Shown piece after piece: positions 30,673 through 63,256 of a stretch of 64,000 nucleotides of DNA (positions are counted from its first letter, which is position 1; each line of letters begins with the position of its first letter). The notes under the pieces were generated by a model. It did no database searches. It was given only the letters and a program-made list of their open reading frames with translations, and had not been told where the DNA came from. Position numbers and translations under genes: made by a program. Source of the stretch: a virus (lineage: Duplodnaviria > Caudoviricetes); IMG/VR virus record IMGVR_UViG_3300013426_000001, positions 64,001 to 128,000 of that record; one strand, written 5' to 3'.

Positions 30673-30701
30673 TTGACAAACAAAACAAGATGTGTTATAA
30701 T
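30673..30701 (+). promoter_or_regulatory. sigma-A promoter upstream of RNA locus
   Basis: AAAACGC-TTGACA-17-TATAAT. Confidence 0.85.
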
Positions 30702-30870
30702 AAATGCGTAAATTGGAGGTAAGGTTATGGCAAGTTTATTTATCGCAGATTTCTTTTTAACAGTCGGGTTTATTCTCGGAATTAAAATTTGGATGAAGAG
30801 AACGGGCGATACCTTCCAAGAAGTTTGTATGAAAATAAGAGACGCGATTATGCGTAAATAAGGAGAAAAG

Positions 30871-31068
30871 ATGTTACCTGAAAGTATTAGAGATAGAGTT
30901 GTCGAAGAGCAGAACGAACTTCGCGACAGAATCACAAAACTTGCTTTGTTTGTTTACTCGGCGAAAATCGAAACCGTCGACGAAAAGCAAGTGAGATTGC
31001 TCAAACGTCAACTTCGTATTATGAGTGAATATGACGAAGTTCTGACAGAGCGGCTCAAAGCAGACTAA
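30871..31068 (+). CDS. small coiled-coil phage protein (crAss001_48-like)
   Basis: RVVEEQNEL..RI.KL..F....LL..QL..M..Y..VL.ER. Confidence 0.6.
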   Translation: MLPESIRDRVVEEQNELRDRITKLALFVYSAKIETVDEKQVRLLKRQLRIMSEYDEVLTERLKAD

Positions 31069-31069
31069 A

Positions 31070-31765
31070 ATACAGGTGCCGAATACCAGAGACGTCGGGT
31101 CAAAAGGTCGGTTAAATGCGGGATTATGCAAGCCTGAGAAAGCAACAACCTCTGAATTGGTGTAAGTGTGTATTAACACCGCCAGGATACGGCGGTATCC
31201 ATGTAAGCAGGAAGTTGCAGGGGTCAACTAAAGGCGGCGGCTCGTTAAGCCGTGTAGCAACCCCTCAAAAACTCTATAATTGCACAGCGGATTGTAGATA
31301 ATGGTGCGGCGCCAACAAGCCGAAATCAATGCAGTACGTAAGGGACTGATGGTTTACTGAGAAACAGAAAATCTCAAAGCTGTAAAAATATTTTAATAGG
31401 TGCTACGAAATCCTCTTAATTATACAAGAGCACTTAAAGTGTGACTTGCTTGCGTAATGACTTAAAGAACCTCGTTGAGTAGAGGTGGTCAGGGTTTAGT
31501 ATCGAGGGAAAGGCGGTAGTAAATGGAGTTGGACGAACAGCCTATATAGAGTTGATGGTGTAAAAATCTCTTAAAACCATCTTACGGAAAGATCCCCAAA
31601 AGGGACTGCGGGCGTTACGATTTTTTCCAGCGCCCACCGCTGACCAACATGCGGGATATAAGTGGCTGGGTCGACAAGTATCAAAAACAGGAATAACTCG
31701 AACTGTTTAGTTCCATCTCGGCTGGACGAGAGGTTTCTCCCCAAAGTACACGGGGATAGGGTTAT
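31070..31765 (+). ncRNA. large structured non-coding RNA candidate (GOLLD/ROOL size class, family unassigned)
   Basis: about 700 nt with no credible ORF and many helices; directly precedes tRNA cluster. Confidence 0.6.
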
Positions 31766-31769
31766 ATGT

Positions 31770-31858
31770 GGAAACTTGCGAGAGTTGGTTTAATCGACTG
31801 GTCTTGAAAACCAGCGACCGTAAAAGGTCCGTCAGTTCAAATCTGACAGTTTCCGCCA
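31770..31858 (+). tRNA. tRNA-Ser(UGA)
   Basis: GGAAACT/AGTTTCC acceptor, CTGGT-CTTGAAA-ACCAG, long variable arm, TTCAAAT, G73, CCA. Confidence 0.95.
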
Positions 31859-32011: not shown

Positions 32012-32085
32012 AGGCAATTAGCACAAAAGCAGTGCAACCGACTTTGACTCGGTTTACGTTGGAGCGTTACCAGCATTGCCTGCCA
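32012..32085 (+). tRNA. tRNA-Gln(UUG), non-canonical D/T loops
   Basis: AGGCAAT/ATTGCCT, ACCGA-CTTTGAC-TCGGT, T-loop AGCGTTA, GCCA. Confidence 0.8.
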
Positions 32086-32241
32086 TTATGCCGCACGTAC
32101 TTTCACGCGGCGGGGAAGACGAAGAGAAAGCGGAGCTTGAGAAGTGCGCAAACGGAGTAGGTCGTGTGCGCAAGTCATTACTCATCAAGGCAATTACTTT
32201 GGTTAGGCGCAAGATTGCTACGTTTTTGCGAGGAGGTTTAT

Positions 32242-33351
32242 ATGAAACTTAATAAAGCATTTAAATTTAGATTATTGCCAAATCAAAATCAAATAGATCT
32301 CCTTGGAAAAACTTTTGGTTGTTGTAGATCTATTTATAATAAAATGCTTGAAGATAAAATCAAATATTATGAAGAGACAAAAAAGAATTTATCTGTAACT
32401 CCAGCACAATATAAACAAGAATTTGAGTGGTTAAAAGAAGTTGATTCTTATTCTTTGTGTAATGAACAGATGAATTTACAAACTGCTTTCAATAATTTCT
32501 TTAGAAACCCAAAAGTTGGCTTCCCAAAATTCAAAAGCAAAAAGAGTGACAAAAGCAGTTATACAACAAGCAATGTTAGTAATATAATTAGAGTTAACGA
32601 TAAGCACCAAATTCATCTATGTAAACTTGGTTGGGTTAAATTTGTAGAACATCGAAAAATTCCAACTGATTACAAAATTAAATCAGTAACAATTACCAAA
32701 ACTCCATCGGGGAAATATTATATTTCAATTTTAACCGAATATGAATATGAAATCTCCAAAAGAGTTTTAGATAAAAACAAATCTCTTGGATTAGATTACA
32801 GCTCTCATGACTTTTATGTCGATAACCAAGGCAGAAATCCAGAGCATTTACATCATTATTACAGAGATTTGCAAAACAAACTTGCTTTTCACCAAAGAAA
32901 ACTTTCGCATATGGTTAAGGATAGCAACAATTATGCTAAACAGAAAATAGTTATTGCTCGAATACACGAAAAGATTTCTAATCAGAGAAAAGATTTCGTA
33001 GAAAAAGAATCGACGAAACTCGCAGACTTATACGACGTTATCTGCCTCGAAAATATTGATTTGTCAAATATTGCTCAATCGTTAAAACTCGGTAAAAGCA
33101 CGTTAGATAATGCCTTCGGGACGTTCAGAAATAGATTAGAGCAAAAGATGATATTGCAAGGGAAATTGGTCGCCAAAATAGATAAGTGGTTTCCCTCAAG
33201 CAAACTTTGCAGATTTTGTGGTTGCATTAACAAAGATTTGAAATTGTCCGACAGGGTTTGGAAATGTGAATGCGGTAAAACTCTTAACAGAGATGAAAAT
33301 GCTGCGATAAATATTCTTAACAAAGGATTAAAGCAATTGACAATAGCATAA
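32242..33351 (+). CDS. tnpB: TnpB RNA-guided endonuclease (IS605/IS1341-type), no tnpA
   Basis: KAFKFRLLP, GCCRSIYN, GLDYS, CLENI, CRFC/CEC zinc finger, RDENAAINI; GGAGG SD. Confidence 0.95.
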   Translation: MKLNKAFKFRLLPNQNQIDLLGKTFGCCRSIYNKMLEDKIKYYEETKKNLSVTPAQYKQEFEWLKEVDSYSLCNEQMNLQTAFNNFFRNPKVGFPKFKSKKSDKSSYTTSNVSNIIRVNDKHQIHLCKLGWVKFVEHRKIPTDYKIKSVTITKTPSGKYYISILTEYEYEISKRVLDKNKSLGLDYSSHDFYVDNQGRNPEHLHHYYRDLQNKLAFHQRKLSHMVKDSNNYAKQKIVIARIHEKISNQRKDFVEKESTKLADLYDVICLENIDLSNIAQSLKLGKSTLDNAFGTFRNRLEQKMILQGKLVAKIDKWFPSSKLCRFCGCINKDLKLSDRVWKCECGKTLNRDENAAINILNKGLKQLTIA

Positions 33352-33373
33352 AAATATGTTATAATTGAAATAG

Positions 33374-34091: not shown

Positions 34092-34139
34092 AGAAACCGT
34101 GTTATTTTGCTTGACACGGTTTCTTTTTTGTGTTATACT
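34092..34139 (+). promoter_or_regulatory. terminator of RNA locus fused to recD2 promoter
   Basis: AGAAACCGTGT...ACACGGTTTCT plus T tract overlapping TTGACA-17-TATACT. Confidence 0.8.
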
Positions 34140-62310: not shown

Positions 62311-63256
62311 TTCGTTCACCTCCTTTGACTTAAAGCTCTTCCTGTTCGCATTCGAGCTGATATTGGTCATCAACTCCGATGCTGGAAAGGAATTCAGCAA
62401 CCATATCGGCTGCTTGCCTTGCCGTCTTTGCGCAAAAGATGCGAGAGAGGCGTACTTCATCGTTCGTGTCGAGTAACATGATCTTGAAAGTGTAACCTTT
62501 CAGCATTTTGGTACCTCCTTTTTTTGTGCTTTTAGCCAGCCAGCTGTTACGATTTACGAAAACGTAACTTGCCGAATGCTTGCTCGGGCTTGTGACCGAG
62601 CTGCCGCATTAACGCCTTTCGGCGCCACTCTGCGTAGTGTTTTTTACGTGGTTATCGCTTCCACGTCTTGTGTTAGTCTACTATCTCTATTTTGCCGTGT
62701 TTTTTCAAAAGTTCAACTTGTTTCATCATTTTTTCAAATGACGAATAAATGCAGAAATAATCATTTTTAGGATCGTCATGCATAATTTTGAGTTGGAAGT
62801 TATCTAAGCCTTTGTAAAATTTGAAACCTTTAATCATTTTAGGTTCCTCCGTTCTTTATTCCGTTAGCGGTGCTGTTGCTCACTCACGAAGAGCAACCAT
62901 CGAAGCAGTTTTACATCTTACTTGGGATGTAATAATGTATTTCGCTTATAAAATAAGGTAATTTACATTATCTTAATTCACTTTTATTACTATATATAGT
63001 ATATGTTATCCCTTTTCACACTCAACTCAGAATTCCTCCCCCACTAATTAAAGACGCCCAACTCAAAACACCATCCCCTCCTCAAATTCCAACCCGCGTA
63101 ACCACCCATTCCCATTTTTTGAACCCCAATTCTCAATCCACCTCAACCCTCCAAACGTCTGGACAATTTCACATTTACATTCACCCACCTAAAACCTTTA
63201 CCCTTTTGCCCCCTCTTAAAAAAAAATAAAAAAAATCAAAAATCCCCCCAAATCGC

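Follow-up and report, generated by a model that had tools for sequence, protein, structure and literature searches.

A non-coding region at the head of a phage tRNA island as a probable chain of small structured RNAs

The tRNA island of a 138.5-kb gut phage with direct terminal repeats is headed by a non-coding region of about 700 nt, which is probably a chain of about seven separately folding small RNAs and not one giant RNA. We favor many RNAs because the modules of the region assort independently among related phages, because the upstream neighbor of one of them, the core, varies from phage to phage, because the modules close on themselves, and because the long-range helices proposed for the region fail on comparison. 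Three of the modules, namely the core, M4 and the GGUG unit, are supported by covariation; the invariant U.G pairs fit only the plus strand, i.e. the strand of the tRNAs.

Locus and coding potential

The window, i.e. the whole stretch of 64,000 nt that was analyzed, corresponds to bases 64001-128000 of the IMG/VR record of the phage. The phage helicase shares only 24-30% identity with those of large Bacillota phages (phiCD211, Lactococcus 949); one of the related contigs is labelled human gut metagenome, and others stem from goat and rabbit gut bins. The original prediction placed the region (Table 1) at the head of a tRNA cluster, which is confirmed and is the sole tRNA island of the phage. 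Downstream of tRNA-Ser follow, in this order, tRNA-Gln, a TnpB gene (32242-33351), tRNA-Pro and a RecD-like helicase. The consensus promoter upstream of the region is the likely start of a unit that comprises two small ORFs, the RNA modules and the tRNAs, and the hairpin at the far end is the only strong terminator-like hairpin of the island. No terminator-like site was found between this promoter and position 34092, and neither a strong promoter nor a strong terminator between the modules; a weak promoter-like match (10/12) is located at 31042-31071. Since promoter and terminator frame the island, the latter looks like a single transcription unit, with some internal promoters.

The TnpB gene is intact (OrfB_IS605 and Cas12f1-like TNB domains), and a perfect consensus promoter at 33337-33365 overlaps its final codons. 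Relatives (loci with L numbers) carry IscB-type HEARO RNAs or another TnpB elsewhere in the island (L003:4483, L004:9935, L020:1225, L002:8054-9222). Directly 3' of tRNA-Gln lies a conserved non-coding block (32083-32232), which recurs at 72-80% identity in L002-L006, L011, L013, L017, L020, L024, L026 and L027 and is also found directly 3' of a tRNA in L011 and L024 (tRNA-His in L024). On the minus strand of the window, positions 62584-62634 match the type-P5 twister self-cleaving ribozyme with 58 bits (gathering score 37.6). Two possible intron-bearing phage tRNAs occur in L016: a single Rfam tRNA match spans 202 nt (L016:2561-2762), which implies an insert of about 130 nt, and a tRNA-Leu homologue at about L016:1080-1215 has about 50 extra nt in the anticodon loop compared to L008:6352-6436.

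All six frames of the region contain 8-15 stops each. The longest and only sizeable ORF on the plus strand (31116-31301, 61 aa) has no match in Pfam; in each of the six relatives inspected (L017, L004, L006, L018, L024, L026) it has lost its start or its frame is interrupted. A coding reading was rejected on these grounds, so that the region is confirmed as non-coding, in line with the earlier statement that it holds no credible ORF.

Searches with Rfam 15 gave no match in the region, be it at gathering score or at E ≤ 10, the latter on both 3.4 kb and 761 nt, and none on the minimal member of the GGUG family described below. Neither ARAGORN nor Rfam detected a tRNA or tmRNA cloverleaf inside 31069-31769, and the Rfam models for HEARO/IscB guide RNAs, group I introns and the known self-cleaving ribozymes did not match the region, whereas HEARO, a group I intron and a twister were detected elsewhere with the same tool. 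The structures are absent from Rfam.

Compared to shuffled sequences, the folding energy of the whole region has a z-score of -1.66 on the plus and -0.59 on the minus strand, and the individual modules range from -0.3 to -1.9. Folding energy alone is therefore unremarkable and not better than that of shuffles. The evidence for structure is comparative: it comes from covariation among relatives and not from thermodynamics.

Table 1. Features of the region and its surroundings, with positions in the window.
Feature	Position	Strand	Remarks
Sigma-70-type promoter	30673-30701	+	12/12 hexamer matches, TG-extended
65-aa ORF, crAss001_48 family	30871-31068		upstream neighbor of the region
Region under study	31069-31769	+	about 700 nt, non-coding
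U1, small GGUG-type unit	31073-31136	+	alignment A9
U1 P1	31073-31077 with 31132-31136	+	followed by one G
U1 P2	31079-31082 with 31108-31111	+	
U2, variable multi-hairpin domain	31138-31218	+	includes ACCGCC/GGCGGT hairpin; fold predicted only
M1b stem-loop	31219-31265	+	closed by AGGGGU/ACCCCU
M1b inner helix	31238-31242 with 31248-31252	+	5 bp; C-G to A-U compensatory change in L003
Core	31272-31386	+	115-nt double-pseudoknot RNA; alignment A4
Core H1	31273-31281 with 31290-31298	+	compensatory changes at two adjacent pairs
Core H2	31307-31310 with 31319-31322	+	four different helix versions
Core H3	31332-31335 with 31345-31348	+	invariant or one-sided changes
Core H4	31352-31355 with 31362-31365	+	one A-U/U-A swap
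Core proposed pseudoknots	31284-31288 with 31379-31383; 31359-31361 with 31373-31375	+	invariant or one-sided changes
Large GGUG unit	31395-31546	+	152 nt; alignment A6, model R2
GGUG unit P1	31395-31401 with 31540-31546	+	7-bp closing helix, inner U.G
GGUG unit G and P2	G 31402; P2 31403-31406 with 31516-31519	+	P2 4 bp
GGUG unit tail UAAAU-GGAG-N6-GAACA	31520-31539	+	3' of 109-nt variable insert
M3, three hairpins	31548-31636	+	simple hairpins, single compensatory changes or replaced stems
M3 hairpin 1	31554-31559 with 31576-31581	+	A-U to G-C in L003
M3 hairpin 2	31593-31596 with 31602-31605	+	rebuilt with other sequences in L017, L020, L024
M3 hairpin 3	31610-31614 with 31631-31635	+	G-C to A-U in L004 type
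M4, pseudoknot-capped RNA	31637-31767	+	130 nt; eight sequences known
M4 Hb	31637-31640 with 31651-31654	+	
M4 Hc	31685-31690 with 31703-31708	+	two adjacent pairs change on both sides in L017
M4 Hd	31716-31720 with 31727-31731	+	different hairpin in each lineage
M4 He	31738-31742 with 31752-31756	+	rebuilt in L017
M4 pseudoknot	Hc loop 31693-31699 with 3' end 31759-31765	+	7 bp; U.G to C-G in L017
tRNA-Ser(UGA)	31770-31858	+	downstream neighbor of the region
Intrinsic-terminator-like hairpin	34092-34124	+	13 pairs, then T run; far end of island

A mosaic of self-closing modules

The region was compared with about 70 related loci. The starting set consisted of five phages with a 98%-identical helicase (L002-L006), and further loci were collected via conserved words from viral and metagenome collections. 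Even among the five close relatives similarity to the region is found only in patches of 72-93% identity, and the BLAST map divides the region into blocks which are present or absent independently of each other. About seven modules result, which recur in other phages independently and in other combinations. Thus, L003 has M1b, M3 and M4 but no core, core and M3 are directly adjacent in L024, and L013 places a tRNA-Tyr between GGUG unit and core. Depending on the phage, the upstream neighbor of the core is one of four different modules. Where sampling is good, each module has a terminal helix or pseudoknot of its own that closes it.

The same comparison bears on the pairings from which the region had been called helix-dense. 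Eight of the ten pairings listed turned out to be local hairpins, most of them conserved or compensated, while the density as such finds no counterpart in the folding energy, which does not rise above chance. Seven of the hairpins (AGGGGT/ACCCCT, TGAGA/TCTCA, GATGGT/ACCATC, TCCC/GGGA, GGGCG/CGCCC, AAACAG/CTGTTT and TCCCC/GGGGA) are mostly conserved or show compensatory or replaced-hairpin changes; the eighth, ACCGCC/GGCGGT, is likewise local but lies in a variable domain that is common only to L017 and is partly lost there. The two long-range helices do not hold. For TACAG/CTGTA, proposed to close 31071-31384, the 5' side changes in the L004-type relatives (L004, L006, L018, L024 and L026) while the 3' side stays unchanged, and its CTGT is more readily accounted for by a pairing within the core. 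For TGGTCAG/CTGACCA with nested GCGGT/ACCGC, relatives retain only one of the two sides, and the GCGGT lies partly in P2 of the GGUG unit. Since the helices that were proposed as closures of RNAs of 314 and 160 nt are not conserved and about seven modules are found, the original estimate of one or two new RNAs was an undercount. Its broader expectation of a structured, possibly new RNA that cannot confidently be assigned to GOLLD or ROOL is borne out by the lack of any Rfam match at all thresholds used and by covariation on the tRNA strand in core, GGUG unit and M4.

In the core alignment A4 (14 distinct sequences), 99.5% of the cells are paired under the full model, which includes both proposed pseudoknots, six pairs are changed on both sides and none of 500 shuffles reaches the observed level (slid controls, 28-40%); all cores are at least about 85% identical, and in families as narrow as those of core and M4 (about 80% identity or more) covariation amounts to few events and kinship can inflate shuffle tests. 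Judged from this alignment, H1 and H2 can be taken as proven by compensatory changes, and H3 and both pseudoknots as consistent but unproven. Invariant U.G pairs fix the plus strand. A TATAAT inside the core was considered as a sigma-70-type promoter and rejected, as these bases take part in the covariation of helix H1. With model R1, a single core was detected in each locus, and three more cores were added later (L047, L063 and L065). The core stands alone in L010, L011, L013 and L027, where a tRNA starts 0-8 nt downstream. R1 detected no diverged core paralogues (weak matches in L035 and L068 do not align), and no copy of the core word was found among 185,579 reference genomes; L014 and L015 proved to be chance word matches. 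Immediately 5' of the core, L010 (230-365), L013 and L027 carry an AT-rich insert of about 130 bp with perfect 11-bp inverted repeats that resembles a MITE-type insertion or a long hairpin.

U1 shares the P1-G-P2-UUAAAU frame with the large GGUG unit but differs in the tail, which here follows the UUAAAU junction with 14 nt, and U1 is not found by R2. In both of its helices, the type seen in the window and L017 and the L004 type differ by clean compensatory changes: P1 reads CAGGU/GCCUG in the window and L017 and CUCGGU/GCCGAG in L004, L006 and L024, and P2 reads CCGA/UCGG versus CCAG/UUGG or CCAG/CUGG. In L002 a TnpB element is inserted into a U1-like small unit. U2 is common only to L017 (about 87% identity), and L004-type relatives have unrelated sequence of similar length at this place. 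In L003 and L020, M1b appears as a block of its own. In the window, M4 ends 4 nt before tRNA-Ser, in L017 a few nt before tRNA-Leu.

No conserved neighboring protein accompanies the modules: the best cluster is present in 9 of 53 loci, and a kinase-plus-HD protein, PhoH and Clp in 5-6 loci each. The kinase-plus-HD protein (about 315 aa, AAA_33/KTI12-type kinase and HD domains), which lies near tRNA islands (L008:2786-3739, L016:8726-9664 and four other loci), resembles polynucleotide kinase-phosphatase RNA-repair enzymes. Neither antisense nor repeat matches between the individual modules and the phage genome exceed chance level, and a literature search returned no description of these motifs.

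The GGUG unit and its family

GGUG units are laid out as P1, a G, P2, a purine-rich internal loop, a variable insert, a UAAAU junction, GGAG-N6-GAACA and P1'. The unit of the window shows P1 with the inner U.G, the single G, the 4-bp P2, UAAAU and GGAG-N6-GAACA, and scores 105 bits (E 2e-25) against model R2, partly by construction as it is one of the 11 sequences from which the model was built. A word from the tail matched 47 viral contigs from many metagenomes, and R2 finds 51 distinct members in phage loci. A further 14 members occur in 12 genome contigs, 11 of which are labelled Bacillota or Clostridia-type and one as a Methanobrevibacter bin (labels: Oscillospiraceae, Christensenellaceae, Acutalibacteraceae, Bacilli, Fusibacter, Clostridia, Eubacteriales, Candidatus Limenecus bin, Methanobrevibacter bin); the members in the Candidatus Limenecus and Methanobrevibacter bins may reside on mis-binned phage contigs. 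In total, the family comprises 65 units (covariance-model hits) in 56 loci. Another 7 of the 19 unit-word matches in genomes were rejected as chance matches without model support, a number that equals the chance expectation (contigs from Pseudomonas, Maribacter, SAR86, Deltaproteobacteria, Chitinophagales, Bacteroidota and one Eubacteriales).

In alignment A7, which contains the R2 members, 95.9% of the cells are paired, both sides change in 6 of the 11 pairs, doubly changed cells number 53 versus 15 expected, and none of 500 shuffles reaches the observed level; alignment to the R2 model biases these figures towards that structure, the P1 swaps nonetheless being plain in the raw sequences. The inserts measure 28-129 nt, and the smallest member has 67 nt (L032:2889-2957). 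A third small hairpin in the tail, suggested by the minimum free energy fold, is not kept by other members, and hammerhead-, K-turn-, T-loop- or tRNA-like readings of the unit, compared by eye, do not fit the conserved positions.

tRNAs are present in the loci of 51 of the 65 units, and without exception these tRNAs have the same orientation as the unit. A tRNA is found within 20 nt of 14 units, one of which (L075) lies exactly between two tRNAs. GGUG units have no Rfam match. In islands of other GGUG-carrying phages ROOL, GOLLD, RAGATH-33, a group I intron and several tmRNAs are recognized (L039:7641-8241, L042:2836-3438, L059:9006-9609, L045:5016-5531, L046:7215-7340, L041:3037-3355), elsewhere than the units, which therefore form a separate family.

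Seven GGUG units are present in the 147-kb phage G002, of which five form a tandem array of 1.1 kb (L092:2000-3100, i.e. G002:C1:75500-76600). This array has its own -10 box upstream and is free of tRNAs for 2 kb in both directions (5-kb stretch examined), so that GGUG units appear to be autonomous genes. The G-C pairs of P1, invariant in the other units, are here swapped or shortened in a coordinated manner. After its fourth unit the array has a 17-codon ORF with a strong ribosome-binding site, a sequence also present 3' of units in L057. The leader that follows the consensus promoter (window 30702-30730, L026:2300-2330) has GUAAAUUGGAGG just 5' of the start codon and closely resembles the invariant GGUG tail UAAAUGGAG; given this likeness, the tail may mimic a ribosome-binding site.

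The most informative feature of the modules is the invariance of their unpaired stretches, which span phages of 98-233 kb and, as far as sequence conservation can tell, point to a specific partner. We tentatively raise the possibility that GGUG units represent a novel and widespread class of RNA genes in phages, which occur one at a time among tRNAs or form tandem arrays by themselves. In these genes a fixed scaffold (P1, P2, tail) would surround a freely replaceable domain; core and M4 would be further new stable RNAs or ribozymes of the tRNA operon. Such RNAs would act in trans, the scaffold binding a common partner and the variable domain giving specificity, e.g. as decoy or guide against host translation, tRNA-processing or defense factors.

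The modules could instead be cis-acting spacers without a function of their own, structured leaders which insulate tRNA folding, guide processing or protect the precursor from nucleases. Their position directly 5' of tRNAs with gaps of 0-8 nt would suit this role, as would the free replacement of helix sequences and the pseudoknot-capped ends, which could block exonucleases. We nevertheless consider spacers improbable: unpaired stretches that stay invariant across phages of such different size would be unexpected, and the tandem array of G002 lies more than 2 kb from any tRNA and has its own -10 box.

Origin of the modules and comparison with known systems

How the modules would be made and stabilized, and what they might do, we infer from their arrangement. 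Since they occur elsewhere alone, reordered or squeezed between two tRNAs, they can be read as discrete non-tRNA RNA genes of a tRNA operon, probably co-transcribed with the tRNAs as a single precursor between the promoter at 30673 and the terminator at 34092. They would be released by RNase P and RNase Z, acting at the neighboring tRNAs, together with cuts in A/U-rich linkers; 5' processing of tRNA-Ser would define the 3' end of the RNA upstream of it. Closed module ends, i.e. a terminal helix or a pseudoknot between the 5' hairpin loop and the 3' end, would shield the products from exonucleases, and the invariant single-stranded stretches (GGUG tail, core loops) would offer sites for a trans-acting partner, probably one with a link to translation or tRNA metabolism during infection.

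Alternatively, the region might encode a single "ornate" RNA of about 700 nt that represents a new class and works like ROOL or GOLLD, with the modules as domains of this composite molecule, which perhaps forms multimers. All modules lie on one strand without a strong promoter or terminator in between, and close relatives keep a single module order, which is also compatible with one composite RNA. GOLLD, moreover, combines a variable with a conserved part and can have tRNAs in a linker, and both ROOL and GOLLD adjoin phage tRNA islands. We regard this alternative as unlikely, since the modules are found singly in other phages, each sampled one closes on itself and the two proposed long-range helices are not conserved; the Rfam models of ROOL and GOLLD, which score 155-333 bits on true copies in sister islands, are silent here. 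Very improbable is a third alternative, in which the modules are mobile-element debris or non-autonomous derivatives (IS605/TnpB or IscB guide-RNA ends, MITE-like) in a recombination hot spot: the TnpB inside the island, the HEARO RNAs, further TnpB and short inverted-repeat insert at the same places in relatives and the mosaic shuffling would fit it, yet the region has no HEARO or other Rfam match, compensatory changes and invariant loops argue for selection on RNA structure, and in L002 TnpB interrupts a module and is not itself one.

Non-tRNA stable RNAs have been known from phage tRNA clusters since T4, and to our knowledge it is not known to anyone what they do; interest was revived by the RNA-only cages that ROOL and GOLLD form. 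The present locus contributes three or more further RNA structures that have covariation support and no entry in Rfam. The GGUG family, with at least 65 members in gut and rumen phages and Bacillota-type contigs and a design of scaffold plus variable domain, offers a compact target (67-190 nt, many sequences) for probing, structure work and partner pull-downs. Some candidates for large ornate RNAs beside tRNA genes may likewise be chains of small RNAs.

ROOL (RF03087) is a structured RNA of Bacillota phages and prophages that is often located beside tRNA islands (PMC5737381; bioRxiv 10.1101/2024.12.08.627333). The region shares this setting, i.e. a phage and the proximity of tRNA genes, and in L039, L042 and L059 true ROOL genes share this type of island with the GGUG unit. 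The ROOL model, however, does not match the region at E ≤ 10, compared to 280-333 bits for the true ROOL of these three loci, and in place of one large RNA we find separate, independently assorting modules of 45-150 nt and no conserved long-range helix. GOLLD (RF02032) also occurs in the context of phage tRNA islands, consists of a variable and a conserved part and can have tRNAs embedded; its Rfam model represents the universally conserved 3' domain (bioRxiv 10.1101/2024.12.08.627333). Despite the similar setting, the region shows neither a match to this model nor a universally conserved 3' domain extending across it. The true GOLLD at L045:5016-5531 is about 400 nt away from the nearer GGUG unit and about 1.7 kb from the other. 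Since the models thus locate true ROOL and GOLLD in sister islands at places other than those of the modules, the suggestion that the region is a divergent member of either class is not upheld.

Staphylococcus phage K, likewise a phage of Bacillota, produces abundant non-coding transcripts beside its tRNA genes (PMC9241854); these are known only from transcript mapping, and the likeness to the modules is one of description. The species 1 and 2 stable RNAs of T4 (rnaC and rnaD) are annotated as small stable RNAs in a tRNA cluster, beside a homing endonuclease. They differ from the modules in host phylum and phage lineage and show no similarity to R1 or R2: with filters off, neither model matched rnaC or rnaD in their own orientation within T4 68000-76000, and the sole overlapping matches were 32-nt stretches with E values of 1.9 (wrong strand) and 7.2. 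As non-tRNA RNA genes of 119-139 nt that are arranged head to tail with tRNAs on the same strand, rnaC and rnaD would nonetheless be the best analogue for how the modules are made.
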